Positions 5,698 to 42,529 of a stretch of DNA of 64,000 nt are shown here, piece after piece (positions within the stretch are counted from its first letter, which is position 1; every line of letters begins with the position of its first letter). The translations under genes and the position numbers were made by a program. The stretch spans positions 4,873 to 68,872 of the forward strand of contig JACMPA010000026.1 of NCBI GenBank assembly GCA_014377695.1, written 5' to 3'. Below the pieces are notes generated by a model. That model made no database searches. It saw only the letters and a list, made by a program, of their open reading frames with translations, and was not told where the DNA came from. The DNA is from Candidatus Saccharimonadota bacterium (lineage in GTDB: Bacteria; Patescibacteriota; Saccharimonadia; Saccharimonadales; UBA4665).

Positions 5698-6804
5698 TTG
5701 GACTATACTAGAATGATGAAACGGTTATCGCTCACAGAACTTGAGAAGTACATCGAGAGCATCGATACGGCCGAGTATGCCAAGACCCGAAATTATATTG
5801 ACGGCTCGACCAAGTTGTCGGAGTATATCAGCCGTGGCTTCATTAGTCTGCCGCGCGTGCAGGAATTGATTCTCAAGAACAATACCAAATCGAGCGCCTT
5901 CAAGCTACTGAGTGAACTATCGTGGCGCGAATATTGGCAGCATACTTGGCGGGTGCGAGGCGACGAGATTTTTGAATACTTTCGCCCCCTCCCCTTCGAG
6001 CCGCGCAGTGGCCTGCCGACCGCCGTACTAGAGGCTAGCACTGGAATAAAAGCCCTGGATGAAGGCATTCACCAGTTATATGAGACAGGTTTTATAGATA
6101 ATCATATGCGCATGTGGCTGGCTGGACTTGTCTGCAACGTAGCTAAATGCGACTGGAAAATCGGTGCGGCTTGGATGCATTCCTATCTGATCGATGGCGA
6201 TTTTGCGAGCAATCATCTGAGCTGGCAATGGGTCGCCGGCAGCTACACGGGCAAGCCGTATTTACCCCAGCAGGCCAACATCAATACATATACCGAAACT
6301 GAGCAGGATGACACATATCTGAACAATACTTATGCGCACATCGCGGACATGGATGTACCTGATGAGTTAAACGATTTGACCAAAACATTGCCCGCGCACA
6401 AAGCGACGATGCTGCATGACACAATAACGATCGATGAGATACACGCTGCTGAGACGGTGCTGTTGTGCAGTCCGTGGACCCTTGATCCTACCTGGCGCTC
6501 CGCCGACACAGGTCAGCGCGTGCTAGTTATTCCGAGTGATATATATCAAGAGGGTGCATACAGCCAACATGTCCTGGATAGCATACAGCACTTCGTACAG
6601 CAGATTGATGAGCTAAGGATATGCAATTTGTCAGATAAACAGATCAAACAGCTTAGCCCCAACACGATACTTCGAAAAGACTATCCTGGTATTGCCACCT
6701 GGCCTGGCCAGGTGGACGGGGCAGAATTACTGCAACCAAACCTACCTGAGAAGTTCTACCCGTCCTACTCTGCCTACTGGAAGGCAATCGAGAAAAGTCA
6801 GTAG
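5698..6804 (+). CDS. Photolyase/cryptochrome-superfamily protein with inverted topology (FAD domain N-terminal; NewPHL-like)
   Basis: The protein starts directly with FAD_binding_7 motifs: YAKTRNYIDGSTKLSEYISRGFISLPRV, ELSWREYWQ, TGFIDNHMRMWLAGLV, DGDFASNHLSWQWVAGS. About 170 further aa follow. There is no N-terminal alpha/beta domain. The TTG at 5698 or the ATG at 5713 could be the start. Confidence 0.75.
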   Translation: MDYTRMMKRLSLTELEKYIESIDTAEYAKTRNYIDGSTKLSEYISRGFISLPRVQELILKNNTKSSAFKLLSELSWREYWQHTWRVRGDEIFEYFRPLPFEPRSGLPTAVLEASTGIKALDEGIHQLYETGFIDNHMRMWLAGLVCNVAKCDWKIGAAWMHSYLIDGDFASNHLSWQWVAGSYTGKPYLPQQANINTYTETEQDDTYLNNTYAHIADMDVPDELNDLTKTLPAHKATMLHDTITIDEIHAAETVLLCSPWTLDPTWRSADTGQRVLVIPSDIYQEGAYSQHVLDSIQHFVQQIDELRICNLSDKQIKQLSPNTILRKDYPGIATWPGQVDGAELLQPNLPEKFYPSYSAYWKAIEKSQ

Positions 6805-7041: not shown

Positions 7042-8532
7042 TTAAACAAGCCATTGTCGCGCGGTTGATTCAATTGTCTGTTGCTTGTCGCTGCTAAATT
7101 TATCGTAAATTCTAACGACCATTTGCATGCGAAAGTTTTGCTTTATAATCTCTCGGTGATCATCTATAAATTTCCAGTACAAGGCATCCCAGACACCAGA
7201 CCACGGCTCTTTCTTGTAATCACTCATTTTTATTATGTAGTTGCTACCGCTGATATATGGCTTAGTCGTTATCAAGGTGCCGGCGGCAAACTGACTCATA
7301 GCGTAGACATTTGGAACCATAACCCAATCGTAGGCGTCAATAAACATCTCCATGAACCACCTATACACATCATCTGGATCAATACGTAGTAAAACCATTG
7401 CATTGCCTAAAATCATGAGACGCTCAATATGATGAGCGTAACCCGTGTCGAGCACTCGCTTGATCGTCACATCAATTGGCTTGATGCCGACGCTGCCGGT
7501 CCACCAGCCATGTTTCAGCTTTTGATGTGCTTCTAAGTAATTTGCAGTACGCATTTCTTTTCCAAAGTGCACATATGTCGCCCGCATGTATTCGCGCCAG
7601 CCAATTACTTGGCGTATAAATCCTTCTAGACTTTCGATCGGTGCCTCGTGCGATTTACTATAGCTAATTGTCGCCTCGACGACCTGACCAGGCGTCAATA
7701 GACCGCAGTTAATGAGCGGGCTCAATATGGAATGGAATAATTCTGATTCTGATTCAGCTATTGCATCCTCGTAGGGCCCAAAGTCAGCTAACCGTTCATT
7801 CAAGAACCGCTCTAACTGCTCCATGGCTTGATCGTGAGTTACCGGGTAGACAAAGGTTTGACTGGTTCCGGGATTGCCTCCAAACGATTCATCAACCCAT
7901 TGCATGGCTTCGGCGACATGGTCCGATGTGTTCGTCGGATAGCATGGCGGCAAGACTATACTCTTGGGCAACTTTTTACGGTTAGAAGCGTCAAAACTCC
8001 AGGCGCCTCCAATCGGTTTATTATCGGCAGTCATTAGAATGTTCAAGCGTTTGCGCTGCCAGGCATAGAAGCTCTGCATACGATTTGGGTTATTACTGAA
8101 GTAATCGTCAATCAAACCGAGGCTGGTTAAAAATCCTGGGGACTCATGCCGCTGGGCCGACACGCCAAGCTCTTCGAAGAGCTTAAACAATGATTCTTGT
8201 AGCCAATCGTCAGTGAGTTCATAGTACGTAATTGCGGACGGTTTTAGGCTACTGAGTGCCTCACCGACTACATCCATACTTTTGCGGTCCGACGTCTCTA
8301 CCACTATTACTCGAAATCCACGAGATTCCAATAGGTCTTTGAAATGACGGATAGACGCACGATGTAGTAGTAATTTCTGTTTATGAAATTTGTATTGCTT
8401 AAAGAACAGGTCGTCTTCAATCAGCAGCATCGTGGTATCCGCCGGGGCGGTAGTGTGCTCAAGGAATAGCTGATTTGGAAATATCAACCTCACCGGTTGT
8501 CGTGTTGGAGTGGGATCAGATATAGCACTCAA
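7042..8532 (-). CDS. FeS-BCP/COG3046-type cryptochrome/(6-4) photolyase-like protein lacking the Fe-S cluster cysteines
   Basis: LIFPNQLF...LLIEDDLFFKQYKFHKQKLLLHRASIRHF, IGWREYMR, TGYAHHIERLMILGN, DAYDWVMVPNVYAMSQFA, KPYISGSNYIIKMSDY. There are only two Cys in 496 aa, and neither sits in the C-terminal DYCxxC...C region. Confidence 0.8.
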   Translation of the reverse strand: MSAISDPTPTRQPVRLIFPNQLFLEHTTAPADTTMLLIEDDLFFKQYKFHKQKLLLHRASIRHFKDLLESRGFRVIVVETSDRKSMDVVGEALSSLKPSAITYYELTDDWLQESLFKLFEELGVSAQRHESPGFLTSLGLIDDYFSNNPNRMQSFYAWQRKRLNILMTADNKPIGGAWSFDASNRKKLPKSIVLPPCYPTNTSDHVAEAMQWVDESFGGNPGTSQTFVYPVTHDQAMEQLERFLNERLADFGPYEDAIAESESELFHSILSPLINCGLLTPGQVVEATISYSKSHEAPIESLEGFIRQVIGWREYMRATYVHFGKEMRTANYLEAHQKLKHGWWTGSVGIKPIDVTIKRVLDTGYAHHIERLMILGNAMVLLRIDPDDVYRWFMEMFIDAYDWVMVPNVYAMSQFAAGTLITTKPYISGSNYIIKMSDYKKEPWSGVWDALYWKFIDDHREIIKQNFRMQMVVRIYDKFSSDKQQTIESTARQWLV

Positions 8533-12281: not shown

Positions 12282-13820
12282 CTATTGATTGAATTTATTG
12301 GCTAGGCGCGCAAAGTCGGCGATGTCAACCTTACCACTACTGTCAATATCAGCACGAGGATTAGTTAACTGAGCCGTAGTACGGTTGAAATTAGCTGACA
12401 AGATCGAGAAGTCGGCGATGTCGACTCTACCGCTCATATTTATATCTTCGGCGCGGAAGGTACTGTTGGTAACCGTTACGCTGACACTAGTGCTTGGCTT
12501 AGTATTTCCAGCAGCGTCACGAGCGATAGCAGTCAAGTTGTAAATACCGTTAGCAGTCGTAGTTGTATTCCAACTAGTGCTAAATGGTGACGACGTGACT
12601 TCAGCATTTAGATTAACGCCGTTTAGCTGGAACTGGACACCCGTTACTCCGACTGCATCGGAAGCTGTAGCAGTAAGCGTTACAGGGCCATTAAGAATTG
12701 CATTCGCAATTGGTGCGGTTATAGAAACTGTCGGTGCCGTAGTATCGGCAGCTGGAGCTAACGTTGTCAGTGTAGCGTCAGGTGACATCGTCAAGTTACT
12801 GGCTGCGTCTTTGGATTTCACTCGGTAGTGATACAGCGTGCCGGCCGTCAAGCCGCTAACATTGACACTATGAGTAGTCACTTTAGTGGTTGCGAGGGTC
12901 GAAGTACTACCATATGCAGTCGTAGTACCATATTCAACTTGCGAGTCCGCAGCTTCATTTGTCGTCCATGTGACCGTGGCCGAGGTTTGAGTGATGCTGC
13001 TGCTAGCAACCACACTCACGGTTGGCGCCGTACTATCCGGGATAGTAAAGGTTACCTGGCTACTTGATCCGACATTACCGACGCTATCTGTGGCCTTCAC
13101 GACTAACGTATGTGACCCGACGCTCAAACCGTTCAAGCTGAGCGGTATCACATATGCACCTGTAGTAGGCGTAGCATCAGTAGCGGCGGCCGTAGTACTA
13201 CCGTCTAAGTAAGCAGCAATACTCGTAATTGAGCTTGTGTCGGTAGTAGTTCCGGTAATATTAGTGGTAGCACCACTCACAGAAGCAGCATTAGCCGGGG
13301 CAGTTACCGTAACAGTTGGGGCAATCGTATCGCTCGAAGCACAATTTTCACCGTAATAATTAACGCCACCGATTGCCACGGCCGTATTATCGGGCACACA
13401 GCTGCTGTCGCCGGTCATAATAATGCGATCAACTTCGACGTTGTCATCTTTTCCAGCCATGGTAACCGTGAACGCTCCGGCTGAGTTAGAACTAACAACG
13501 ACTGGCGTAGCGTACTTGACCCAGGTCCATGTGTTAGCAGTTAGGGTCGTGCCGCCCATGGTCGCCCCACACAGCAAGTTTGAACCAGCGTTATCTATGT
13601 TCATATAATACGCGTTATTGGCCGGTGTAGCCGTGCGAATACGACTCCAGATCGTATAAGTACCCGCAGTCAGTGATGCGGACTGGGTCACAGTACCTCT
13701 GTCGGTTGGCAAGGCGGCACAAGCAGCTGAAACAGGTTGCTGAGATGTCGTATACATGAGACAGGTTGTAACCGTTAATACGGCTATCAAGAATCCAGCC
13801 ACTCCACTTTTGATCGTCAT
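12282..13820 (-). CDS. Secreted multidomain protein: CBM-like module, Ig-like repeats, FN3, C-terminal dockerin
   Basis: Signal/anchor GFLIAVLTVTTCLMYT. CBM-like TAGTYTIWSRIRTA...VEVDRIIMTG. FN3 ATVTWTTNEAADSQVEYGTT...LYHYRVKS. Two dockerin Ca-loops: DINMSGRVDIADFSILSANF and DIDSSGKVDIADFARLANKF. Confidence 0.8.
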   Translation of the reverse strand: MTIKSGVAGFLIAVLTVTTCLMYTTSQQPVSAACAALPTDRGTVTQSASLTAGTYTIWSRIRTATPANNAYYMNIDNAGSNLLCGATMGGTTLTANTWTWVKYATPVVVSSNSAGAFTVTMAGKDDNVEVDRIIMTGDSSCVPDNTAVAIGGVNYYGENCASSDTIAPTVTVTAPANAASVSGATTNITGTTTDTSSITSIAAYLDGSTTAAATDATPTTGAYVIPLSLNGLSVGSHTLVVKATDSVGNVGSSSQVTFTIPDSTAPTVSVVASSSITQTSATVTWTTNEAADSQVEYGTTTAYGSTSTLATTKVTTHSVNVSGLTAGTLYHYRVKSKDAASNLTMSPDATLTTLAPAADTTAPTVSITAPIANAILNGPVTLTATASDAVGVTGVQFQLNGVNLNAEVTSSPFSTSWNTTTTANGIYNLTAIARDAAGNTKPSTSVSVTVTNSTFRAEDINMSGRVDIADFSILSANFNRTTAQLTNPRADIDSSGKVDIADFARLANKFNQ

Positions 13821-13823
13821 AAG

Positions 13824-15305
13824 CTAGAGTACCTTCCCTGCTTCGTCATCATGATGTGGCTGTACGACACTACCAGGTGCAGGTATATGAATTGTTCGCG
13901 GCGGGGTTATGCTAGGCGCAGCTTGATACGGACTAGGTGGCGACTGCAGGATTCCCACTGTAGGCACAGAAGCGGTATTAGCAGTTAGAGTTTGCCAACG
14001 TTCCATGAGATTCAGTCGGCTGCGCAGTACGTAAGCTGCCGCGGCTGCGACTAGCAGCAAAAGGAACACAACTGGGACAACTAGTGGCACTGATTTACTG
14101 GCGGAAACCGGAAGTTTTACGGAAACATTTTGCAAAGCAGATGTCTGGGTGCCAGTTGAAGGATTAGTAACGATGTTGTTGTCGACCGCAATAGCTTGGC
14201 TGTACTCTTTGCCATCAGCCTTGTAGCTAACATGGTGATTTCCTGGGGCTACGTCAGTGAACATGGCTACACCGTCAGAGTCAGTTTTGACAGTCTGTGG
14301 GTCAGAGTGAAGCACTATTTCAGACTTTTTGAGTGGCTTGTTATCTTTATCGAGCATTGTGACTCGCAGCCTAAAGCCTTTAGTCTTAAATGTTTTGATG
14401 TCGGACTGCATCATGTTACCACCAGCATCTTTAGCGTAAACCTGGTAAGAATATGACACACCCGGTAGCAGCCCTGCAGTGGCTATATCTATATCATGGG
14501 CCGTTGCTAACTCCGACAGACCAGTTTGAAGATTCAGTTGGTCACCAACGCCATACTTGATGTACACCTGTGTTGGTTCGTTAGTCATTAAACTCACACT
14601 GGCGCTATTGTAGTTTAGCTTATCCTTTGGAATCTCAACGTTTTGAACTTCAGGCGGCAGTGTATCAACGGCAGTAGATGTTGGTGTAGGTGTAGGTGTC
14701 GATGTCGGGGTCGGGGCGGTCGAAGGAGTAGCTGGTTTTGGTGTCGTAGTTGTTGGTGTAGGTGTTGGTGTTGGTGTTGGTGTTGGTGTTGGTGTTGGTG
14801 TTGGTGTTGGTGTTGGTGCACTAAAAGCAACAGTACCGTTGCTCACTGCTGGGTTTGTATACGTACCATCAGGTGTACTAGCATCGGCAGCCGACAAAGT
14901 TAGGCCAGTTGAACCGCTACCACTTAGAGCTTGAAATGTCACATTTGCAATAAGTGAGTCGCCCGATACTGCAGCTCCGCCTAGACTAATGCCCCGTGCC
15001 AAACTTAAACTATTGGTAGACACAGATTGTGCTAAACCAGTGCTAAATGCTGACTGTGACGAGTCTAGGCTAATGTATCTGAGTTTACTACTATCCCAGT
15101 TAAGGCTAAATTGCACAGCGCCCACCGTACTGCCCGGGTTAATTCGGATAGCGACAGTTACATTTGCTTGATTTAATACGCTGATCGCACCTGGACTTAC
15201 GTATATTTGGCCGGTACCAGCTAGAGCGGTGCTTGCAGTTAACACACCCATAGCCATAGTGACGGCGATTAGGACGGCTACTTTTATTGTTTTTGAATGA
15301 CTCAT
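13824..15305 (-). CDS. Membrane-anchored cohesin-domain protein with PT linker, FN3-like and CarboxypepD_reg-like domains
   Basis: Signal peptide AVLIAVTMAMGVLTASTALA. Cohesin-like segment GQIYVSPGAISVLNQANVTVAIRINPGSTVGAVQFSLNWDSSKLRYISL...GDSLIANVTFQAL...VSNGTVAF. (PT)n linker. RLRVTMLDKDNKPL...DSDGVAMFTDVAPGNHHV. C-terminal TM VPLVVPVVFLLLLVAAAAAYVL. Confidence 0.8.
   Translation of the reverse strand: MSHSKTIKVAVLIAVTMAMGVLTASTALAGTGQIYVSPGAISVLNQANVTVAIRINPGSTVGAVQFSLNWDSSKLRYISLDSSQSAFSTGLAQSVSTNSLSLARGISLGGAAVSGDSLIANVTFQALSGSGSTGLTLSAADASTPDGTYTNPAVSNGTVAFSAPTPTPTPTPTPTPTPTPTPTPTTTTPKPATPSTAPTPTSTPTPTPTSTAVDTLPPEVQNVEIPKDKLNYNSASVSLMTNEPTQVYIKYGVGDQLNLQTGLSELATAHDIDIATAGLLPGVSYSYQVYAKDAGGNMMQSDIKTFKTKGFRLRVTMLDKDNKPLKKSEIVLHSDPQTVKTDSDGVAMFTDVAPGNHHVSYKADGKEYSQAIAVDNNIVTNPSTGTQTSALQNVSVKLPVSASKSVPLVVPVVFLLLLVAAAAAYVLRSRLNLMERWQTLTANTASVPTVGILQSPPSPYQAAPSITPPRTIHIPAPGSVVQPHHDDEAGKVL
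14761..14814. repeat. Perfect hexanucleotide microsatellite (GGTGTT)x9 encoding the Pro-Thr linker
   Basis: Nine perfect ggtgtt units were counted directly, flanked by imperfect copies. The repeat is in frame within the cohesin gene. Confidence 0.95.
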
Positions 15306-32109: not shown

Positions 32110-33804
32110 ATGACACTGACCGATGATGAACTCGCCAAGGTACTAGAGCACCTTAAGTATTTGCCGCCCGCCAAATTAGCTTCTGCCCAGGCTGATGCTA
32201 AGCTCGAAGAGCTCAGTCTATCTGATGCCTTAGTTCAACATGATTATCTCAGCGAGGATGAAGTTGGCAAGGTAATGGCTTTCCATTATCAATTGCCCTA
32301 CGTATCGCTAACGAGCGTGAATATTGCTGATCCGTTACTACGGCTTATTCCTGAACAAGTTGCTAGTCAATTTCAGACCGTACCATTCAAAATAACAGAT
32401 AACAGCATGCACATCGCTACCAATAATCCTACGGCCACTGACTTATTTGGCATGTTGGCCAAAAAAGCCGGAGCAGCTGATTACAAAGTATCGTTTGCTA
32501 CCGAAGCCGGTATTGCGGCTGCGCTTCATTTGTATAAGCAACAGCTCCAAGGCGTCTTCGATGCGCTACTTGCCCAATCGAAACGTAATGCCACTGAGCC
32601 GATCGCCAAACTTGTCGACAAACTGTTTGAGTATGCCTATGACGCGCGCGCCTCAGACTTACACATTGAACCACTGCGCGAAAAGACGGTGGTACGTTTT
32701 CGAATCGACGGTGTGCTACATGACGAGGTGTTCTTCCCGAAGAAGATTCACGATCAGATTGTCAGTCGGTTAAAAGTACTGGCTCGCCTAAGAACCGATG
32801 AGCATTTAAGTGCCCAAGACGGTCGATTGCACGTCACACTCGGTAGTGAGCAGTTAACTGTTCGTGTTTCGATTGTCCCGAATGTGATGGGCGAAAAAGT
32901 TGTGATGCGGTTACTAGCTAAGCATAGCCGTCAGTTTAGCCTGACAGATCTTGGTATGAGTGATTCTGATCTGAAACAAGTGCGGACGGGCTTTGCCCGG
33001 CCGTTTGGAATGATTCTATCGACCGGACCAACCGGGTCCGGTAAGACTACCAGCATGTACGCCATCCTAAAGATTCTCAACACCCGCGAGCGCAACATTG
33101 CCACGATCGAAGACCCCGTCGAATACGAACTTGATGGAATTAATCAGATTCAGGTCAATGCCAAAACTAACCTGACCTTTAGCGAGGGCTTACGGTCGTT
33201 ACTACGCCAAGATCCAGATGTGCTATTCGTCGGCGAGATTCGCGACCAAGACACGGCGAGTATCGCCGTAAACGCTGCTATGACTGGTCACTTAGTGCTC
33301 AGCACCATGCACACTAACGATGCAGTTACGACGCTGCCCCGTTTAGTGGATATGCAGATCGAACCGTTCCTAGCCGCGTCTACGGTCAATGTGATTGTGG
33401 CTCAACGTTTGGTCCGCAAAATATGTAGTCATTGTAAATCTAGCTTGGAGCTAAAACGTACCAGTAAAGGCTGGCTTGGCGACGCCGCTCAAGCAGCCGT
33501 CCTGAATGCTTTGAATCCCGTAGTCATCGATAAGCATTTTGGCAAAAAAGCCTCCGTCCGAGTTTATCGCGGCACGGGCTGTAGCGCCTGTCACGATACT
33601 GGCTATCAAGGTCGAATTGGTATTTTTGAGGTATTAGAGGTCACGCCAAAGCTAGCACAATTAATCAGCGCCCGGGCTGACACCGACAGTTTGCTCGCTC
33701 AAGCTGTTGCTGACGGTATGGAGACAATGCTGGATGATGGTTTAGAAAAAGTCCTTAGCGGCGAAACGACGCTACTCGAAATTCTAAGAGTCACTGAGGT
33801 CTAG
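32110..33804 (+). CDS. pilB: Type IV pilus assembly ATPase (GspE/PilB family)
   Basis: T2SSE N-domain, Walker A GPTGSGKTT, Asp box, Walker B VLFVGEIRD, His box, tetracysteine CSHC...CSAC. Confidence 0.93.
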   Translation: MTLTDDELAKVLEHLKYLPPAKLASAQADAKLEELSLSDALVQHDYLSEDEVGKVMAFHYQLPYVSLTSVNIADPLLRLIPEQVASQFQTVPFKITDNSMHIATNNPTATDLFGMLAKKAGAADYKVSFATEAGIAAALHLYKQQLQGVFDALLAQSKRNATEPIAKLVDKLFEYAYDARASDLHIEPLREKTVVRFRIDGVLHDEVFFPKKIHDQIVSRLKVLARLRTDEHLSAQDGRLHVTLGSEQLTVRVSIVPNVMGEKVVMRLLAKHSRQFSLTDLGMSDSDLKQVRTGFARPFGMILSTGPTGSGKTTSMYAILKILNTRERNIATIEDPVEYELDGINQIQVNAKTNLTFSEGLRSLLRQDPDVLFVGEIRDQDTASIAVNAAMTGHLVLSTMHTNDAVTTLPRLVDMQIEPFLAASTVNVIVAQRLVRKICSHCKSSLELKRTSKGWLGDAAQAAVLNALNPVVIDKHFGKKASVRVYRGTGCSACHDTGYQGRIGIFEVLEVTPKLAQLISARADTDSLLAQAVADGMETMLDDGLEKVLSGETTLLEILRVTEV

Positions 33805-33810
33805 TCAATA

Positions 33811-34878
33811 ATGTCTACAACCGACAAACACCTAAACATACACTTGAAGGGTAAAGAACGGCTTAGTTTATTTAGTGATTTATCAACCATGCTAACTGCC
33901 GGGATTCCGATCTTAGAAGCCGTCGAATCGCTCGAGGAAGACGTCCGTGGCAACATGAAGAAAGTTCTAGCGATCTTGCACCACAACCTCAATAACGGCG
34001 AGCCTTTGTCGATGGGGTTAGAACGTATGCCCCATGCTTTTGACCCGATTACCGTCAACCTGATACGGGCTGCAGAAGCGGGTGGCACGTTAGAGGAAAC
34101 GCTGCATGACATTGTGCAGACTACCAAAAAAGAGCTGGCTTTCAGCGAGCAACTCCGTAACACCATGATCTACCCTCTGTTTGTAATGGGCGTGTTCATG
34201 ACCATCGTCATCCTGATGTTGACCTTCGTAATTCCACGAGTCGCCAAAGTATTCGAAACGATGCACGTCCAAATGCCGTTCGTAACCCGGATGATGATAT
34301 CGGCATCAAAAACATTCAATGATCACTGGATACTCATTGGTATCGCTTTTATCGCGCTGATCATTTTTGCAGTTGGTTTCGTCAAGGTTAATAGCCGTCC
34401 GATTGCCCGCTTACTTTTGTCGTTACCCGGTTTGAAAATACTCGGGACTAACATTGACCTAACACGCTTTACGCGCAGCTTCGGTTTGCTCATGCATGCT
34501 GGCGTCCCAGTTATCGAAGCGCTCGAGTTATCAGAGAAAGTTGTTCGCAAGAAACAGCTTGTTGAGCTCGTGCAAGACATGAAGCGCAATGTAGAGAACG
34601 GTAAACCGTTATCGACCGGGATGCGTGGCAAAAGAGGCCTAATACCACCAATTATGTCTCGGTCAATCGAAACTGCCGAGGAATCCGGCACGCTCGAACA
34701 GACGATGCAGAATCTGACCGAATATTTCGATGACCAAGTTGCCGGCAGCGTCAAAGTCGTCAGTAGCCTGATTGAGCCAATATTACTGGTCATGGTCGGT
34801 TTAATGGTTGGAGCACTGATGATTACGATTATCGCCCCAATTTATGGCTTAATATCTCAAATTAATCCGAAGTCATAG
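33811..34878 (+). CDS. pilC: Type IV pilus platform protein (GspF/PilC family)
   Basis: Two T2SSF repeats (LSTMLTAGIPILEAV; FGLLMHAGVPVIEAL) and three TM segments. Confidence 0.9.
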   Translation: MSTTDKHLNIHLKGKERLSLFSDLSTMLTAGIPILEAVESLEEDVRGNMKKVLAILHHNLNNGEPLSMGLERMPHAFDPITVNLIRAAEAGGTLEETLHDIVQTTKKELAFSEQLRNTMIYPLFVMGVFMTIVILMLTFVIPRVAKVFETMHVQMPFVTRMMISASKTFNDHWILIGIAFIALIIFAVGFVKVNSRPIARLLLSLPGLKILGTNIDLTRFTRSFGLLMHAGVPVIEALELSEKVVRKKQLVELVQDMKRNVENGKPLSTGMRGKRGLIPPIMSRSIETAEESGTLEQTMQNLTEYFDDQVAGSVKVVSSLIEPILLVMVGLMVGALMITIIAPIYGLISQINPKS

Positions 34879-34883
34879 GGCAT

Positions 34884-35369
34884 ATGTTCCGCAGCATCAC
34901 TACTGACCAATCGGGATTTACACTCGTTGAAGCGTTGGTTGTAACTGGCATACTCGTCATCCTGTTTGCGGTTGGGGCAGTAAACCTCGGTCAGCCTCAG
35001 ACTAACGCTCGGTCAATCAGTGCCGTGGACACACTGGTTAACGACCTAAAGTCGCAGCAGATCGCTGCCATGGCTGGAGCAACGGGCAGCACGGCTGCTC
35101 AACAGGCAGCAGGTATATTTGTGCAATCCAATCAATACACCTTGTTCAATGGCGCCAGCTTTAGTGCTGGTAACAGTTATAACTACATGTTTACGCCCGC
35201 TATCGGCGTCGCATTCGGCACAACCTTCCCCGGCGGCATCATATTGTTTACCAAGGGGGCTGGTGAATTAAGCGGTTTCACGGCGGGTAATAATACCATA
35301 ACCGTAACCGCTGGCGGTGTCAGTAAAGTCATCACTATCAGCCGCTTTGGAGCGGTGACAGTCACATGA
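34884..35369 (+). CDS. Minor (pseudo)pilin with prepilin-type N-terminus
   Basis: QSG|FTLVEALVVTGILVILFAV. Confidence 0.8.
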   Translation: MFRSITTDQSGFTLVEALVVTGILVILFAVGAVNLGQPQTNARSISAVDTLVNDLKSQQIAAMAGATGSTAAQQAAGIFVQSNQYTLFNGASFSAGNSYNYMFTPAIGVAFGTTFPGGIILFTKGAGELSGFTAGNNTITVTAGGVSKVITISRFGAVTVT

Positions 35370-37240
35370 TACATCGGCAATTCGGACAACATTGGGAATC
35401 GGGAGCGACCATCGTCGAGGTCTTAGTAGCAATTGCTCTGACCGGAATATTTTTGCCGGTTTTAGCGACTGCACTGGTGACGGCAAATGCCGGTCATGCA
35501 ACCACAACCCAACAGCTCCAAGCCCAGAGCCTATTACGCGAAGCCACTGACGCTGTCCGAAGCGTCCGTGAAAAAGGTTGGGCGAATGTTGTCGCTGATG
35601 GAACATACCACCCAGTAATTTCTGGCAGCACCTGGAGCTTAACGAATGGTGCCGAAACCATCGGTGGTCTAACTAGGCAAATAGTCATTACGACGCCGCA
35701 GCGGAATGTAGCTGGCGCTATCGTACCGAGCGGTGGTGCTAACGACCCGTCAACTAAGCATGTCGTAGTGACGGTGTCGTGGACTAAGCCGGCTAGTGGC
35801 TCGCTCAGTACCGACTCATATATGACCCGCAATCTGAGCAACGTCGTCTGGACCCAAACTAGTCAAACAGACTTTACTGCCGGCACGCTGAATAACGTCA
35901 ACATTACCAACACAGCTGGGGGCGAGGTTATGCTAAATGCTGGTGGAAGTGGCATATCCTATGCTAGTCCAACGGTGGCTAGCACACTGGATATAACTGG
36001 TGTTACCGATGCCAACGATGTTTACATGGATACCAATACCAGCCGGGCATATGTTGTCAACGGCACCTCCCTGAGTATCATAAATGTCGCGAATCCGGCC
36101 GCTCCAGTTCTGCTGGGTACCTACTCGGCAGGCCTGCTATTGAATGGGGTGTATGTGGTGGGAAATTATGCCTACATTGCATCCTCATCGGATACAGCCG
36201 AACTGACAGTAGTGAACGTGACTACTCCGTCGAGCCCGACTTTGGCAGGCTCTTTGAATCTCGGCGACACCGCTGATGCCACGAGCATTTATGTCAGCGG
36301 AAGTAACGCCTACGTTGGCAAAATCCTCAGTAGCACCACCAATATCAATGAGTTCTACGTCGTCAATGTCAGTACGCCGACTAGCCCCAGCCTTGCTGGC
36401 TCCTTGAACCTGACAGGCAATATCAACTCCGTCTGTGTCAAAGGAAATTATGCCTACGTTGCCACCGCCATCACGACCGCCGAGCTGACGATAATTAACA
36501 TTACGACGCCAACTCTACCAGTCCAGGCAGGCGTCTACGATGCCGCCGGGACGGCAGCCGCTAACGATGTTTTTTGTGGCAGTACATATATCTACCTAGC
36601 TGAGGCTAGCAATACCGGCGGACCAGAGCTTTTCATCATCGATCCTTCAACACCAGTCAGTCCAACATTGACCGGCTCATATGAGGTTGGTAATACCGTA
36701 TATGGGGTAGCCGTCGCCGGCGCTGAGGCATTTTTGCTTACGGCTGTAAACAATAAGCAATTCACTGTTCTGGACACGACCATACCTTCAGCGCCGGTAG
36801 TTGAGGGCGTTGCTAAAATCACCGTAGCCAATGATATCTATGTAGCCAATAACAATGCTTATTTGGCATCGACTGATAACGTTGGTGAGCTTACTGTTAT
36901 GCAGGGGAGTGCCAGCACCGGCGGCCAGTCTGCCAGCGGAACTTATGAGTCACCGACACTCGACAGCGGCAATGGTGGCGGGGGGTTCAATTCCCTGGCC
37001 TTTACTATCAGCCAACCGACAAATACAACCGTTTCATTCCAAATCGCCACCAATAATGATAATGCCACTTGGTCGTATGTCGGGCCTGATGGTACCGCAA
37101 GAAGCCAATATACCGCCGCCGGAGCCATCCCGTTGGGCTTGGTTGGTAACCGCTATTTACGCTATAAAGCTGCGCTTTATACAACTACGAAGACCGTCTT
37201 GCCATTGATATACGACGTAACGGTGAATTATTCGCCATGA
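35366..37240 (+). CDS. Large minor pilin carrying a 7-blade LVIVD-repeat beta-propeller and a C-terminal beta-sandwich
   Basis: Prepilin-like ESG|ATIVEVLVAIALTGIFL. Seven repeats of the type NYAYIASSSDTAELTVVNVTTPSSPTLAG. ATGA overlaps at both ends. Confidence 0.75.
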   Translation: MIHRQFGQHWESGATIVEVLVAIALTGIFLPVLATALVTANAGHATTTQQLQAQSLLREATDAVRSVREKGWANVVADGTYHPVISGSTWSLTNGAETIGGLTRQIVITTPQRNVAGAIVPSGGANDPSTKHVVVTVSWTKPASGSLSTDSYMTRNLSNVVWTQTSQTDFTAGTLNNVNITNTAGGEVMLNAGGSGISYASPTVASTLDITGVTDANDVYMDTNTSRAYVVNGTSLSIINVANPAAPVLLGTYSAGLLLNGVYVVGNYAYIASSSDTAELTVVNVTTPSSPTLAGSLNLGDTADATSIYVSGSNAYVGKILSSTTNINEFYVVNVSTPTSPSLAGSLNLTGNINSVCVKGNYAYVATAITTAELTIINITTPTLPVQAGVYDAAGTAAANDVFCGSTYIYLAEASNTGGPELFIIDPSTPVSPTLTGSYEVGNTVYGVAVAGAEAFLLTAVNNKQFTVLDTTIPSAPVVEGVAKITVANDIYVANNNAYLASTDNVGELTVMQGSASTGGQSASGTYESPTLDSGNGGGGFNSLAFTISQPTNTTVSFQIATNNDNATWSYVGPDGTARSQYTAAGAIPLGLVGNRYLRYKAALYTTTKTVLPLIYDVTVNYSP

Positions 37241-37734
37241 TACAACTACGTCGTCTCGGTTCAAAGGGGGTAACATTTGTAGAGATCTTGCTCGTTATGG
37301 GTTTGCTTTCAATCTTTTTGGTTGTCATGACAACCATTTTTACCAGTGCCCTTGATGTTCAGACTCAATCGGAGACGTATAGTGCAACGCTGAGTGACGG
37401 GCGCTTCATCATGGCACGTTTAAACTATGACATCAGTCGGGCCACAGCCGTTACTACGCCAGCAGCGCTCGGCGCTGCTGGCACGTCCCTGGTGCTTACA
37501 ATCAACGCCACACCTTATACCTTCGCCGTGGTGGGTTCTAACCTACAACTAACTGACCCGACTGGTAGCGCCAACCTGACGGGTGGCACCAGCATATCGA
37601 GTGTTTCGTTCCAACGGCTTGGCAACGTCGGCGGCAAAGACACCGTCCGCTACACCTTCATTTTATCGAGCCTCGCCCGCAATGAGGGTGTCAGTAACAC
37701 GCAAACATTCACAAGCACGGCGGAGCTCCGATAA
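37237..37734 (+). CDS. Minor pilin with prepilin-type N-terminus
   Basis: SKG|VTFVEILLVMGLLSIFLVV. Confidence 0.75.
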   Translation: MIQLRRLGSKGVTFVEILLVMGLLSIFLVVMTTIFTSALDVQTQSETYSATLSDGRFIMARLNYDISRATAVTTPAALGAAGTSLVLTINATPYTFAVVGSNLQLTDPTGSANLTGGTSISSVSFQRLGNVGGKDTVRYTFILSSLARNEGVSNTQTFTSTAELR

Positions 37735-38135
37735 TGCAGCGAGGCGCTGAAAGTAGTCAAACTGGTCAAACAATCATTGCGCTGCTGATATTCATGTTGC
37801 TATCTATTTTGATAACAACAACGGCTGTCACAATCACAGTCATCAACTCTGCTGGGAACAATCAAAGCAGCCTTGGTGAGTTAGCTCGTCAGGCGGCCGA
37901 AACTGGTGCCGAGAATGCTTTGCTGCAATTAGAACGCGATCCTACCTATAGCGGTGAAACGATGTCTATAAATAGTGCTACAACTGCTACAATAACCGTA
38001 AGCGGTACCACGACACGCACCATCACTTCGACTGGAGCAGTTGCTGGCATCGGCACATTCAAGCGAACAGTAGTTGTTACCGCCACGTACAGCGGTTTTG
38101 CATTTACCGTCACAAACTGGATCGAAACACCATAA
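37734..38135 (+). CDS. PilX-like minor pilin (no Glu5)
   Basis: QTG|QTIIALLIFMLLSILITTTAV. Confidence 0.6.
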   Translation: MQRGAESSQTGQTIIALLIFMLLSILITTTAVTITVINSAGNNQSSLGELARQAAETGAENALLQLERDPTYSGETMSINSATTATITVSGTTTRTITSTGAVAGIGTFKRTVVVTATYSGFAFTVTNWIETP

Positions 38136-38139
38136 GCCC

Positions 38140-38697
38140 ATGCCTATATTTAGTAAGCCTAACGCAATTGTGTATGTCCGCCGCAGTGGATTGATTGTCG
38201 CCGGCAAAAAGCTAACGCCGGCTCGTCTGAATTTTGATCCGAAGCAGATTGAGAATTTAGAAGTATTAGACGAAGCAGCCTTCGTTGATACACTGACCGA
38301 ATTCTTTCGTAATCATAATCTTAAAAATAAACACGTCTTGATGGTATTGGACGATAGTGTGCTATTCACAAAACATGTAGCGCTGGATGCAGCCGGTAAA
38401 CCGGCTGCTATAACTGATGCCTTTATCGAATCTATGCCATTGCATCCTGGCAAGCGAGCTTGCTTGAGGGTTGTCCACGACAGCAAACTGACGTTATATG
38501 CCAGTAACGGTGACCTATACCGTAGTGTCGCAGGAGCCTTAGACTATGCAGGAGCATCAAAAGTACTAGCCATAACACCGGCCAATGCCTACCCTTCGGC
38601 CTCTGGTAAGCAACCATTGGCAGCTGCAGTACAGCAGTATGTCAATGATACAACTGTGCGCTCTTCAGCCAACTTTCAGAATACGCCTTTAGTTTAG
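38140..38697 (+). CDS. Pilus-locus protein resembling the N-terminal half of PilM (tentative)
   Basis: ATG at 38140, 5 nt after the previous stop. The pattern ...IENLEVLDEAAFVDTLTEFFRNHNLKNKHVLMVLDDSVLFTKHVAL... resembles PilM domain 1. No TM segment. Confidence 0.4.
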   Translation: MPIFSKPNAIVYVRRSGLIVAGKKLTPARLNFDPKQIENLEVLDEAAFVDTLTEFFRNHNLKNKHVLMVLDDSVLFTKHVALDAAGKPAAITDAFIESMPLHPGKRACLRVVHDSKLTLYASNGDLYRSVAGALDYAGASKVLAITPANAYPSASGKQPLAAAVQQYVNDTTVRSSANFQNTPLV

Positions 38698-38734: not shown

Positions 38735-38763
38735 TTGACAACTTCTCTCAACTGAATAAAGAT
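38735..38763 (+). promoter_or_regulatory. Sigma-70-like promoter ahead of pilin paralog 1
   Basis: TTGACA(38735-38740)-N17-AAAGAT(38758-38763), followed by AGCAGCA. Confidence 0.4.
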
Positions 38764-38794
38764 AGCAGCATTAACGTAACGAGGTTATGCTTAC

Positions 38795-39478
38795 ATGCAA
38801 AACTTAAAACTAAAAAGTACAGCAACAAACCAGGGTGGGTTTACGCTTATTGAACTTTTAGTAGTAATTGGCATCCTTGCCATCCTACTCGCAATCACCC
38901 TAATCGCTATCAACCCTACTAAGCACTTCCAGGATACAAGGAATGCCAAGCGCTCATCAGATGTCGCAGCAATTCTCGATTCTATCTATGAGTACGAGTC
39001 AGGCAATAACGGAGCCCAGCCAGCATCTGTGTCAGGTGTGACCGCAACCCCAACAGCTGTCGGCGGAGTTTCTCAGGCCGCTACCGGCACTACGTTTGCC
39101 AACCCTAACCTGACCTACACCGGATTTACGGCTAATACGATTACTAGCGGTACTGTAAAAGTAACCGGCTGTGCCACAGCAGCTAACAACGGCAGCTATC
39201 CTGTTACGACCGGAAACGCAACGAGTATCACAGTCACCAACGCCAGCGGCGTTGCCGGCGATACTACTTGTGTCATCACTGGATGGTCAAGCCGCATTAA
39301 CATCTGTGCCGACGTCGTACCGACCTATCTAGCAGCCTTACCAATGGATCCAAGCGCAACGGGAACTTCTTGTACCTCAAGCTTCAACACCGGCTACACC
39401 ATAGCCGCTACTGGTGGACGCTTTACTATCGCTGCACCTAGTGCCGAAGGCGGCGCAGTCATTACCGTTACCCGCTAA
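38795..39478 (+). CDS. Type IV major pilin paralog 1
   Basis: G|FTLIELLVVIGILAILLAITLIAINP. Cys-bracketed insert. C-terminus RFTIAAPSAEGGAVITVTR. Confidence 0.88.
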   Translation: MQNLKLKSTATNQGGFTLIELLVVIGILAILLAITLIAINPTKHFQDTRNAKRSSDVAAILDSIYEYESGNNGAQPASVSGVTATPTAVGGVSQAATGTTFANPNLTYTGFTANTITSGTVKVTGCATAANNGSYPVTTGNATSITVTNASGVAGDTTCVITGWSSRINICADVVPTYLAALPMDPSATGTSCTSSFNTGYTIAATGGRFTIAAPSAEGGAVITVTR

Positions 39479-39520
39479 GACTGCCGAAATACATTAACTG
39501 ACCGAATAAGGAAACCAAAA

Positions 39521-40207
39521 ATGAAACAACTCAATTTCCAACGTAATCTGAAAGACCAAAGCGGTTTTACCCTGATAGAGCTACTTGTAGTTATCGGTAT
39601 CCTTGCCATCTTACTAGCTATCACGCTGATTGCCATTAACCCAACCAAGCACTTCCAAGATACCCGAAACGCCAAGCGTTCGTCCGATGTTGCGGCTATC
39701 CTCGACTCAATCTACGAGTACGAGTCCAGCAATAACGGTGCCCAGCCACCAGCAGTTACCGGTGTTAGTGCTGCCGTTGCATTAGGTGCGATTCCATCAC
39801 AAACTGCTACCGCCACAAGCTTTTCAACACCGAACCTAACCTTAACCGTTCCATCTGGTAACATCATTACTACTGGTACCGTCACCATCACTGGCTGTAG
39901 CCAGGCTGCCGACAACGGTGCCTACCCTGTCACAGCCGGAACGCTTACGAGCATCACCGTTACCAACGCTACTGCTTCCGCTACCAGTGCCACCGGTTGC
40001 GTAATATCAGCTTGGACCGGCCGCGTCGACCTCTGTGCAAACGTTGTTCCGACCTACCTCGCTAACCTACCAATGGACCCATCCTCAGCTGATACAGCTT
40101 GTGCTCCAACCTACAATTCTGGCTACACCATTGCTCGTGCCAACGGCCGCTTTACCATCGCTGCACCTAGTGCCGAAGGTGGCGCAGTAATCAGCGTAAC
40201 CCGTTAA
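39521..40207 (+). CDS. Type IV major pilin paralog 2
   Basis: Same N- and C-terminal blocks as paralog 1, with a different central cassette (TVPSGNIITTG). Confidence 0.88.
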   Translation: MKQLNFQRNLKDQSGFTLIELLVVIGILAILLAITLIAINPTKHFQDTRNAKRSSDVAAILDSIYEYESSNNGAQPPAVTGVSAAVALGAIPSQTATATSFSTPNLTLTVPSGNIITTGTVTITGCSQAADNGAYPVTAGTLTSITVTNATASATSATGCVISAWTGRVDLCANVVPTYLANLPMDPSSADTACAPTYNSGYTIARANGRFTIAAPSAEGGAVISVTR

Positions 40208-40217
40208 GGAGATTGAA

Positions 40218-40712
40218 ATGATTACGCAAAAGCTTAAACAGTCGAATCAAAACGGCTTCACACTCATCGAACTCTTAGTTGTTATCGGCATCCTGGCAAT
40301 CTTGCTAGCGATCACCCTAATAGCTATCAATCCGAACAAGCACTTCCAGGACACCCGTAATGCGAAGCGCTCGTCCGATGTTGCAGCACTCTTAGACGGA
40401 ATCTATGAGTACCAATCAGCCAACAGCGGTACATTGCCCCTAAGCGTGCGGGCTGGCACCATCCCAGCTGCCAGCAAAGTTGCCAGCACCGACATAAACC
40501 TGTGTGATGTCGTTCCAACGTATCTAGCTGATCTGCCAATGGACCCTGACTCAACAGTAACTGGCAGCTTTAGCACTGGTGCTTCGACACCGTGTAATGT
40601 CGCTACAACGTCATACGATACCGGTTACGAGATTGCTAAAACGGCAAATGGCCGCTTCACCCTATCTGCACCTTCCGCTGAAGGAGGCAGTACAATTAAC
40701 GTAACCCGCTAA
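40218..40712 (+). CDS. Type IV pilin paralog 3 (short form lacking the central insert of about 65 aa)
   Basis: NG|FTLIELLVVIGILAILLAITLIAINP ... RFTLSAPSAEGGSTINVTR. Confidence 0.85.
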   Translation: MITQKLKQSNQNGFTLIELLVVIGILAILLAITLIAINPNKHFQDTRNAKRSSDVAALLDGIYEYQSANSGTLPLSVRAGTIPAASKVASTDINLCDVVPTYLADLPMDPDSTVTGSFSTGASTPCNVATTSYDTGYEIAKTANGRFTLSAPSAEGGSTINVTR

Positions 40713-40735
40713 AACGGTTAGAACGTACATTTCAT

Positions 40736-40993
40736 ATGCCTACAGCTACAAAGCGCACTACGAAAACATCCCCCGCTAAGAGTCAATCCACTAAAAAGGC
40801 AGTTTCCAAAAGGCTGCCCAGCAAAAAACCGATAGCCCCCCGGGCTATCGGTAACACCGCAAAAACCCAGCCAACTCGCCGTGGTCGACTAACCAGCAGC
40901 GAAGAGTACTCTACGGCTACCTGGATACTGATCAGCATTTGGCTGGTATTGATAGCCATATTTATTGGTACATTCGTCGGCAAGAGTGGTTGA
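40736..40993 (+). CDS. Small basic tail-anchored membrane protein inside the pilin array
   Basis: K/R/T-rich N-terminal 60 aa and a single C-terminal TM (WILISIWLVLIAIFIGTFV). Confidence 0.4.
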   Translation: MPTATKRTTKTSPAKSQSTKKAVSKRLPSKKPIAPRAIGNTAKTQPTRRGRLTSSEEYSTATWILISIWLVLIAIFIGTFVGKSG

Positions 40994-41039
40994 ATAAGTT
41001 CGTAGTACTGCTTAACGACAAGATAGCAAAGCGCTTATG

Positions 41040-41068
41040 TTGACATTTTTATATATTTAATCAATGAT
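41040..41068 (+). promoter_or_regulatory. Sigma-70-like promoter ahead of pilin paralog 4
   Basis: TTGACA(41040-41045)-N17-AATGAT(41063-41068), followed by AGTATCA. Same architecture as at 38735. Confidence 0.4.
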
Positions 41069-41098
41069 AGTATCAACAACACTAAACGGTAAACCAAC

Positions 41099-41785
41099 AT
41101 GAAAAAAACACACAGTTCCCAGGACGGATTCACCCTTATCGAGCTATTAGTCGTAATCGGCATCTTAGCAATCCTATTAGCCATTACGCTCATCGCCATA
41201 AACCCAACTAAGCACTTCCAGGATAGTCGTAATGCCCAACGTCAGTCTGATGTAGCAGCACTTCTTGATGGAGTATACGAGTACCAAGCTGCTAACTCCG
41301 GTACCATTCCAGCAGTCTTAACTTCATATGTGAGCCCAACGGTCGCTAAAAGCCTCGGAGCACTGCCAAACCAAACAGCAACAGGCACAACGTTCGCGAA
41401 CCCTAACCTTACCTTCACCGGTCTCACTACCAACACCATCACATCAGGTACTGTCACCATTACTGGCTGTTCGCAAGCTGCTGACAACGGCACATTCCCT
41501 GTCACTTCCGGAACAGCCACTACTTTGGTTGTCACCAATGCCAGTGGCGTAGCTGCTGCAACCGGTTGTGTAATTGCTGGTTCTCGCATTGACCTCTGTT
41601 CTGCCTTAGTCCCAAGCTATATTGCAGCGCTTCCAATGGATCCAAGCACCACAGTCAGCAGTGGTACCCAATGTACCGCTACCTACAATACTGGTTACAC
41701 TATTCAGTCTAACGTCGCCGGTAACCGCTATACTGTCGCTGCACCTGGTGCTGAAAACTCAGTTGTCATCAGCGTAACTCGTTAA
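41099..41785 (+). CDS. Type IV major pilin paralog 4
   Basis: DG|FTLIELLVVIGILAILLAITLIAINP ... NRYTVAAPGAENSVVISVTR. Confidence 0.88.
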   Translation: MKKTHSSQDGFTLIELLVVIGILAILLAITLIAINPTKHFQDSRNAQRQSDVAALLDGVYEYQAANSGTIPAVLTSYVSPTVAKSLGALPNQTATGTTFANPNLTFTGLTTNTITSGTVTITGCSQAADNGTFPVTSGTATTLVVTNASGVAAATGCVIAGSRIDLCSALVPSYIAALPMDPSTTVSSGTQCTATYNTGYTIQSNVAGNRYTVAAPGAENSVVISVTR

Positions 41786-41803
41786 CACTTACATCCAGAC
41801 GTC

Positions 41804-42529
41804 ATGACTAACCCTTTCTATATCGCCTTGACTAATAAGTTGCAGCCCTCCGTCAAAAACGAAGATGGCTTTACGCTCATAGAATTACTCGTGGTCATAG
41901 GTATCCTAGCAATCTTGTTAGCCATTACAATCGTCGCAATCAATCCGACATTACAGTTCCAAAATGCCCGCAATGCGCAACGTCAATCGGACGTTGCGGC
42001 AATCCTCGACGGCGTGTATGAGTATCAAGCATCGAATGCTGGGGCCGTACCGTCTAATTTGTCATCGTACATCAGTACCACCGTCGCCAAAAACTTGGGT
42101 GCACTGCCGAACCAAACAGCTACGAGTACAACGTTCGCGAACCCTAACCTTACCTACACTGTTCCATCAGGCAACATCATTACCTCAGGTACGGTTACGG
42201 TCACCAGCTGTACTCAAGCCGGTGACAATGGTACTTTCCCTGTAGTATCGGGCACCCTCACGACGATCGTCGTTACAAATGCTGGCGGCTCGGTTATCAG
42301 TGCAACCGGCTGCGTGATTGCTGGCTTCCGCATTGACCTCTGTTCTGCACTTGTCCCTACTTTTATTGCGGCCCTCCCAATGGACCCTAGCCCGACTGTG
42401 AGTAGCGGGGCACAGTGTGCTCTCACCTTCAATACAGGCTATACCATCCTGTCCAATGCCGCCGGTAACCGCTACACGGTTGCTGCTCCTGGAGCGGAAG
42501 CCGGTGCTACTATTAGCATTACTCGTTAA
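41804..42529 (+). CDS. Type IV major pilin paralog 5
   Basis: DG|FTLIELLVVIGILAILLAITIVAINP ... NRYTVAAPGAEAGATISITR. Confidence 0.88.
   Translation: MTNPFYIALTNKLQPSVKNEDGFTLIELLVVIGILAILLAITIVAINPTLQFQNARNAQRQSDVAAILDGVYEYQASNAGAVPSNLSSYISTTVAKNLGALPNQTATSTTFANPNLTYTVPSGNIITSGTVTVTSCTQAGDNGTFPVVSGTLTTIVVTNAGGSVISATGCVIAGFRIDLCSALVPTFIAALPMDPSPTVSSGAQCALTFNTGYTILSNAAGNRYTVAAPGAEAGATISITR

Follow-up and report, generated by a model that had tools for sequence, protein, structure and literature searches.

A conserved tandem array of five type IV pilins with mosaic head domains in an environmental Saccharimonadales genome

Results

Five intact pilin genes close a type IV pilus operon

The stretch analyzed here, referred to as the window, comprises 64,000 nt of contig JACMPA010000026.1 from the Candidatus Saccharimonadota bacterium assembly GCA_014377695.1 and carries on its + strand a type IV pilus operon that ends in five tandem pilin genes, P1 to P5 (38795-42529). 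Read 5' to 3', the operon consists of pilB, pilC, four or five minor pilin genes, a 207-aa open reading frame (ORF) and then the five-pilin array, which is hence encoded together with an assembly ATPase and a platform protein (Table 1). This array, which is old, is the major-pilin end of a conserved type IV pilus locus in an environmental Saccharimonadales genome. It had been singled out in an initial annotation made from the sequence alone, and the boundaries and + strand orientation given there for the five ORFs proved to be exact. The annotation had left room for undetected defects in some of the copies, but we found none, since all five ORFs are intact and full length, with leader peptides.

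The prepilin N-methylation motif is matched in all five proteins, with PF07963 and TIGR02532 scoring above their cut-offs in P1, P3, and P5. The GFTLIE motif is invariant in the alignment of the five pilins, so that each prepilin displays a Gly at position -1, a Phe at +1, and a Glu at +5. As originally described, the shared N-terminal helix GFTLIELLVVIGILAILLAIT is invariant in the aligned columns of P1 to P5, and the first 21 mature residues are identical across all five paralogs. The C-terminal block R-x-T-x-x-A-P-x-A-E...TR is likewise common to all of them, except that P5 ends in ITR and not in VTR. Alignment and informative sites uphold the grouping of the flanks into P1/P2/P3 on the one hand and P4/P5 on the other, and P3 indeed lacks the central insert, being ~63 aa shorter at this point. 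The label "Cys-bracketed" that had been given to the insert is loose: one Cys pair lies inside it (C126 and C159 in P1), and a second pair (C171 and C193) is common to all five pilins. P1 is predicted to be a major pilin from its conserved strong promoter and leader and from its place downstream of a separate minor pilin set.

A three-dimensional model of P1, computed with AlphaFold2 from 118 homologs, reached a mean predicted local distance difference test score of 91.2 and a predicted template modeling score of 0.76. The model exhibits a pilin architecture, with a long N-terminal α-helix (residues 18-70, composed of helices 18-39 and 41-70) followed by ten β-strands. Seven of these strands, within residues 87-164, make up the insert, and the C-terminal portion is a three-stranded β-sheet (residues 197-226) that, by alignment, is common to the short pilins. 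The head of the long pilins is therefore predicted to contain a β-domain of ~80 residues with disulfide-linked loops. The motifs that define the insert types described below fall in loops between the predicted strands (around residues 108-113, 126-133, and 149-159), next to C126 and C159. When the model was compared with the PDB using Foldseek, nothing scored below E = 0.03, and only weak similarities to small β-barrels were seen. A sequence search of the PDB returned matches mainly to the N-terminal helix, and a single entry, PilE1 in 8pfb, aligned further (E = 6.5e-06), which ranks it first among solved structures by full-length sequence. When the insert alone (88 residues) was queried against 1.84 billion representative sequences, only eight weak matches came back; the non-pilin ones, which are large repeat-rich surface proteins aligned over many short segments or short proteins without informative Pfam domains, were judged to be compositional. 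In this insert-only search, almost nothing was found outside the pilin family itself.

The paralogs are ancient and occupy conserved positions

Synonymous sites are saturated in every pair of genes and in every segment (pS 0.53-0.97), and non-synonymous divergence is low (dN 0.02-0.33). The contrast pointed out earlier between near-identical N-terminal peptides and divergent codons in P1 and P2 is borne out: their helix regions are 98% identical in amino acids, yet only 22 of the 58 codons for the same residue are identical. Over all pairs, identical codons in the helix region are at the level of chance (194 observed, 167-185 expected), and they are slightly above chance in the insert and C terminus. 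The same count led us to reject codon avoidance, that is, selection against recombination between repeats. The pS and codon-identity tests give no sign of a recent large-scale homogenization of the five genes. Since synonymous sites are saturated, helix codons match at chance, and dN is low, we conclude that the paralogs are old, intact, and constrained at the protein level.

The layout of the locus is shared by seven related loci, in which pilB, pilC, and the minor pilins are followed by a long (~228 aa), a second long (~224 aa), and a short (~165 aa) pilin. After the short pilin comes a small basic ORF of 64-85 aa with a transmembrane helix, and then a second sub-array that varies, consisting of zero to two short pilins and one long pilin (226-243 aa). 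The last element of the layout is a divergently oriented gene of the LPG-synthase family. P1, P2, P3, the small ORF, and P5 are positional orthologs across these genomes. P4 differs: the window has a long pilin in a place that in relatives is filled by a short one or left empty. A comparison of array size among strains had been proposed; across these related loci, it is the second sub-array that varies. A scan of the genome contig collection with a single protein recovered three loci only.

Conserved signals upstream suggest that the array is made of two promoter-bearing sub-arrays, P1-P2-P3-small membrane ORF and P4-P5. In an alignment of eight loci (the window plus L001, L002, L004, and L006-L009), the region 5' of P1 displays an invariant TTGACA (38735-38740) and a -10-like AAGATA/GATGAT region. 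The 24-nt leader that follows (38768-38791, CATTAACGTAA.GAGGTTATGCT), which includes a Shine-Dalgarno sequence, is invariant in the eight loci, and its columns are unchanged despite the saturation of synonymous sites in the genes. It may represent a regulatory or a translation element. L007 and L008 have a similar GGTTA(T/A)GCTT 5' of the gene that opens their second sub-array. Four loci retain the TTGAC and -10 elements upstream of P4. Transcription is predicted to start at around 38760 and 41075. Shine-Dalgarno sequences are present at P1 (GAGG), P2 (AAGGA), and P3 (AAGGAG), and several second sub-array genes of relatives have no obvious one. A run of seven A residues (41102-41108) directly follows the P4 start codon (ATG AAA AAA A..) and is the only homopolymer of at least seven nucleotides in the region; it is too short to be called a phase-variation tract.

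The small ORF between the sub-arrays encodes an 85-aa protein with a basic N terminus rich in Lys, Ala, and Thr and a C-terminal transmembrane helix (W..LI.IWLVLIAIF), for which Pfam and NCBIfam gave no match. A perfect 11-bp hairpin, ACCGATAGCCC-CCC-GGGCTATCGGT, lies within it (40828-40852) and was scored as terminator-like on the minus strand only.

Insert cores and longer segments have mosaic relationships

We compared the array with 150 homologs and with the related loci. The core of the insert occurs in at least three types, which are found in many combinations with the flank lineages among the 150 homologs. Type A has TGLSGN as its first motif, CxNxxNNG after the first Cys, and GVAxDxTC before the second. 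The corresponding motifs are TVPSGN, CxQxGDNG, and GGSxxSATGC, the last one residue longer, in type B, and TGLxxN, CSxAADNG, and GVAxATGC, with a shorter end, in type C. Typing by regular expressions is rough, with at least one sequence (L008_1) misclassified, and was used qualitatively.

P2 illustrates the exchange of a core. Its flanks are 0.83 identical to the orthologs at position 2, and its core is 0.72 identical to B-type pilins vs. 0.57 to these orthologs. Position 2 is occupied by A-type cores in related genomes, including the closest known relative (pilin P0008), and the B-type core carried by P2 is a widespread type. An earlier version of the P2 test with a narrow set of P5 orthologs found only a four-site block; this set was mostly C type, and the test was redone with wider groups. 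When first put through this wider-group test as controls, P1 and P4 were not significant.

P4 appears to be a chimera at a larger scale. At both ends (the N terminus to around residue 68 and the final ~9 residues) it matches the short pilin found at the same position in relatives, and its middle is P5-like. The informative sites follow the pattern aaaaaaaaaaaaaabbbbbbbbbbbbbbbbbbabbbaaa, that is, 14 a, 21 b with a single a within, and 3 a (p = 0.001). In a library of 5.8 billion proteins, the best match of P4 is P5 of its own genome (75%), the next ones being at 69-70%, and this nearest relative is the evidence that points to an intragenomic origin of P4. The core itself is of type C, nearer to P0079 and P0121 than to P5, and differs in this from the P5-like flanks (p = 0.018 and 0.006).

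P1, of type A, agrees with its orthologs in all segments except for an eight-site block at residues 94-120. This TTFANPNLT patch matches P4 and P5 of the same genome and not the ortholog (p = 0.001); it is genome specific, common to P1, P4, and P5, and coincides with an identical nucleotide tract of P4 and P5 described below. P5 has a B-type core closest to that of P0130. Its reading as a further mosaic was weakened once P5-lineage orthologs with B cores (P0130 and P0134) turned up, and, depending on the genome, the cores of the P5 lineage are of type B, of type C, or hybrid.

These results bear on the insert groupings proposed initially. The grouping of P2 with P5 is real, as the two share a derived type (TVPSGNIIT, xQAxDNG, and the ...SATGC loop longer by one residue). 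The grouping of P1 with P4 stands only for the 94-120 patch, since the motifs on which it had been based (TGxTxNTITSG and NASGVA) are mostly ancestral and are seen in most orthologs. None of the eight P1/P4 motif codons is identical, and the P1 (A) and P4 (C) cores are of different types, each nearer to cores of other genomes than to the other.

Among the four long genes, 51 quartet sites support 12|45, 26 support 14|25, and 14 support 15|24, and the 14|25 sites are clustered (p = 0.015). The pairwise homoplasy index (PHI) was significant over all positions (p = 0.007) and over codon positions 1 and 2 (p = 0.011), and not over third positions (p = 0.63). The recombination tests gave a divided answer: PHI and maximum chi-square tests on triplets and groups are significant, the latter for the P2, P4, and P1 blocks, and the third positions are null. 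Together with one nucleotide tract beyond chance, the mosaic blocks in P2, P4, and P1 support the idea of segmental exchange on a constrained scaffold.

One identical tract exceeds chance

Identical tracts were tested by resampling synonymous codons independently in each gene. The tract shared by P4 and P5 is 28 nt long, not 27 as first reported, and is above chance (P = 0.002, or 0.019 over all ten pairs). In P1, the 41 nt around the corresponding site (39080-39120) are 83% identical to the P4/P5 stretch. The 23-nt tract described for P1 and P2 exists as well and is marginal (P = 0.038, or 0.13 over all pairs). A single tract therefore exceeds chance, and recent nucleotide-identical conversion tracts were not found among the five genes.

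Helices of neighboring pilins are matched within genomes

The two neighboring paralogs that close the second sub-array were compared over their first 55 mature residues in six genomes. In five of the six, helix identity is higher within the genome (0.84-0.87) than across genomes (0.66-0.74). In L010 (501-1684), for example, it reaches 0.87 within the genome, a value that no ortholog comparison attains (0.69 and 0.71). Genome-specific helix residues were also seen to be common to neighboring short and long pilins in the second sub-arrays of L010, L001, L006, and L008. P5 orthologs elsewhere differ at ~3 of the 21 mature helix residues shared in the window. As identical codons for the matched residues are near chance in most genomes, with no excess, the matching reflects concerted change at the protein level. 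Two explanations suit this pattern, conversion events of old date or selection that keeps the assembly interface matched among subunits residing in one genome.

Upstream genes and genomic neighborhood

The features of the locus are listed in Table 1. A single PilB/PilC pair is present at the locus within the window, and no prepilin peptidase (PilD) was found among the 30 window ORFs scanned. Upstream of the array, a 624-aa protein (35366-37240), retained in all related loci, has a pilin-like N terminus and LVIVD β-propeller repeats and is likely a tip adhesin fused to a pilin module. The 207-aa ORF, with a TTG start, has counterparts of 180-189 aa and adjoins P1 upstream in all related loci; Pfam and NCBIfam gave no match, and no pilin motif was predicted in it.

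Table 1. Pilin genes, associated elements, and upstream genes of the locus (window coordinates)
Feature	Position	Strand	Evidence or remark
P1, long pilin, 227 aa, A-type insert core	38795-39478	+	Orthologous to the first pilin of all related arrays
P2, long pilin, 228 aa, flanks of position-2 type	39521-40207	+	Flank identity 0.83 to P2 orthologs
Insert core of P2, residues ~95-161, putatively foreign B type (TVPSGNIIT, CSQAADNG, SATSATGC)	39803..40003	+	p = 0.0005-0.001 (nominal)
P3, short pilin, 164 aa, without β insert	40218-40712	+	Orthologous to the third pilin of related arrays
Small ORF, 85 aa, between sub-arrays	40736-40993	+	Conserved in every related locus
P4, long pilin, 228 aa, putative chimera	41099-41785	+	Site pattern, p = 0.001; N-terminal tree
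P5-like middle of P4, residues ~69-219	41303..41755	+	Flanks closest to P5 of the same genome
28-nt tract in P4, encoding TTFANPNLT	41387..41414	+	Identical to 42128-42155 in P5; P = 0.002
P5, long pilin, 241 aa, B-type insert core	41804-42529	+	Orthologous to the last pilin of related arrays
Candidate promoter and 5' leader, first sub-array	38735..38791	+	Alignment of eight loci
Promoter-like site, second sub-array (TTGACA, 17 nt, AATGAT)	41040..41068	+	TTGAC and GAT..TA kept in relatives
Upstream assembly genes, same operon	32110..38697	+	Domain matches and synteny in related loci
PilB-type ATPase (T2SSE/MshEN protein)	32110-33804	+	Domain match
PilC-type platform protein (T2SSF protein)	33811-34878	+	Domain match
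Minor pilin set, including the 624-aa LVIVD β-propeller pilin	34884-38135	+	Domain matches
207-aa ORF, family not assigned	38074-38697	+	Conserved, directly 5' of P1

Elsewhere in the window, a bacteriorhodopsin-like gene (Pfam E = 7.8e-47) lies near two genes of the photolyase/cryptochrome family (2948-3700, 5698-6804, and 7042-8532), and a gene for a cohesin-domain protein adjoins one whose product combines dockerin, Big_7, and fibronectin type III domains (12282-15305). The two resemble a cohesin-dockerin surface pair, here in an ultrasmall bacterium. The NCBI proteins MBC7581924.1 to MBC7581928.1, identical to those of the contig, carry two labels, "Aeromicrobium sp." and "Candidatus Saccharibacteria bacterium." Database names of identical proteins and of homologs point to Saccharibacteria/Saccharimonadales, and a single source gives Aeromicrobium sp.; the double label is either a binning error or a hint of recovery together with an actinobacterial host.

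Discussion

The reading that we favor, and hold to be somewhat more probable than not, is that the array encodes co-resident and probably co-assembling pilins whose exposed β-domain has behaved as a recombining module within an old, conserved array. Cores and longer segments would have moved between paralogous backgrounds, either through gene conversion among paralogs of the same genome or through recombination with alleles acquired from outside. Such exchanges would be rare on an evolutionary scale and now overlaid by saturated synonymous change, except for the one 28-nt tract; it is this saturation between all pairs of genes that dates them as old. The paralogs would all be built by the same PilB/PilC machine, probably into mixed filaments, as suggested by the identity of their first 21 mature residues and the matching of helix residues within genomes. 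The outcome would be several alternative exposed surfaces for adhesion to host cells or to other substrates, and the array could in this way contribute to host-range or antigenic diversification, as the initial annotation had suggested. That annotation was largely correct in what it observed, and right in principle about the mosaic, but wrong about the specific history.

Several points weigh against this reading. The PHI signal is entirely non-synonymous, as third positions show none, and convergent selection on a few loops could for this reason mimic part of it. The groups used in the maximum chi-square block tests are the nearest neighbors of the tested segments, which inflates the significance of the blocks. 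With held-out columns, the crossover holds in both halves for P5 and clearly in one of two halves for P2. P2 and P5 are not each other's nearest B cores (0.71 identity between them vs. 0.78 and 0.84 to outside sequences), a relationship that points to no particular donor of the P2 core. There is no obvious Shine-Dalgarno sequence upstream of P4 (41075-41098) or P5 (41786-41803). That the pilins co-assemble, that the five genes are all expressed, and that they serve adhesion are predictions drawn from sequence.

Some credit is due to the view that there was no recombination at all, the mosaic resulting from parallel or convergent amino acid substitutions in a handful of structurally coupled loops, together with rates that differ along the protein. 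The confinement of the signal to codon positions 1 and 2 is in line with it, as is the matching of helix residues without an excess of identical codons. In addition, the NNG/DxTC and DNG/ATGC loop states co-vary strongly (55 and 52 vs. 7 and 9, by rough classification), as would be anticipated for loops that one disulfide holds together. However, the P2 block spans ~65 residues, includes an indel, and is 0.78 identical to outside B cores vs. 0.57 to its own orthologs; the P4 sites form a clean run broken by a single site; the best database match of P4 is its own neighbor; and the 28-nt tract is a signal at the nucleotide level. Convergence in coupled loops is hence a partial alternative, and as a full account we consider it unlikely. 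Still less credible is the history first proposed, in which a two-gene unit, one pilin with an A-like and one with a B-like insert, was duplicated to give P1-P2 and P4-P5, the flanks being then homogenized within pairs. The 26 clustered quartet sites and the presence of B-type cores in both P2 and P5 would suit such a duplication, but synteny largely refutes it: P1, P2, P3, the small ORF, and P5 have positional orthologs, relatives show a short pilin or nothing at the P4 position and an A core at position 2, and the two ends of P4 match those short pilins. The P1 and P4 cores, of different types and each nearer to other genomes, and the shared motifs, ancestral and without one identical codon, do not fit it either, and we regard it as very improbable.

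Whether the array is a repertoire of alternatives or a set of specialists is a separate matter. The paralogs might be functionally specialized subunits, for example two units producing two filaments, or an insert-less P3-type pilin used for filament initiation or DNA uptake. This possibility, which is compatible with the recombination history, deserves to be kept in mind even if we lean away from it. In its favor are the stable conservation of gene position and length from genome to genome, the two conserved promoters, and the helix variants, which differ between sub-arrays in most genomes; moreover, Nanosynbacter lyticus TM7x makes two distinct type IV pili (PMC12206443). On the other side, the lone PilB/PilC pair in the window and the invariant start of the mature helix in all five paralogs indicate a single assembly interface. 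Programmed antigenic or phase variation of the kind known for Neisseria pilE/pilS, in which one expressed pilin is often rewritten from its neighbors, strikes us as hardly tenable, even with a conserved N terminus, a variable head, tandem copies, one identical tract, and an A7 run after the P4 start codon in its favor. Every copy is full length with a signal peptide, two promoters are conserved, synonymous sites are saturated in all pairs, stable orthologs of each copy occur across genera, and the ORFs checked around the locus include neither an invertase nor a recombinase. A search for G-quadruplex motifs (four G3+ runs separated by N1-7) found none on the + strand between 38000 and 43000, where the sole match, C-rich and hence on the minus strand, lies inside the P5 coding sequence. 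An active system behind the cassette-like relationships noted in the initial annotation is not supported by these findings. The co-resident, recombining pilins that we favor can also be pictured in a bolder form, as an obligately mixed pilus of five to seven co-adapted subunits whose helix co-evolves without DNA homogenization, whose disulfide-stapled β-domain is an expressed cassette shuffled between paralogs and lineages, and whose array is a standing library of adhesive surfaces tracking host bacteria. We offer this as speculation, with the odds rather against it.

Known systems offer partial parallels. One of the nearest is the two-pilin heteropolymeric PilE1/PilE2 pilus of Streptococcus sanguinis (8pfb), where tandem major-pilin paralogs with near-identical N-terminal helices are also encoded in one pil locus. 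In contrast to S. sanguinis, the Saccharimonadales arrays have five to seven paralogs in two sub-arrays with both insert-bearing and insert-less forms, co-assembly is deduced from the sequences, and the fold of the head domain has no match in the PDB. With Neisseria pilE/pilS, the array shares a conserved pilin N terminus and an exposed region that varies as a mosaic of segments present in neighboring copies. Unlike in Neisseria, there are no silent, promoterless, 5'-truncated cassettes, the exchanges are ancient, and the copies show no nucleotide homogeneity apart from the 28-nt tract; these differences, and the missing + strand G-quadruplex, are why Neisseria-style switching is not supported. 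The pilin groups of Pseudomonas aeruginosa, the fimA serogroups of Dichelobacter nodosus, and the PilA variants of Vibrio cholerae are allelic pilin groups of proteobacteria shaped by recombination, and such groups are likewise among the nearest analogs. They resemble the present case in having discrete head types on a conserved helix that are incongruent with genome phylogeny, but there the types are alternative alleles at one locus, whereas here several types lie side by side and also vary in position between genomes.

Within the phylum, the T4P-1 and T4P-2 loci of TM7x are of the same kind, with pilB, pilC, minor pilins, and a major pilin (PMC12206443). A lollipop-shaped pilin is likewise predicted, and the paper reports roles in twitching and in host binding. 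There, in contrast to the tandem array, PilA1 and PilA2 are named as putative major pilins assigned to different loci, and a term search of the paper turned up none of the words "tandem," "paralog," and "heteropolymer." The Pam pili of a related organism were set aside, since they belong to a different, non-type IV class of filaments. In the literature on Saccharibacteria, we found no description of tandem mosaic pilin arrays.

Other bacteria offer well-known examples of pilin multigene loci and of pilin heads shaped by recombination, and the principle is not new. Type IV pili play a central part when ultrasmall Saccharibacteria seek out their host bacteria, attach to them, and move over them (PMC12206443, PMC9894109). 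The array provides concrete candidates for determinants of host specificity in environmental Saccharimonadales, and it lends itself naturally to testing how a common assembly interface is maintained among multiple pilins.

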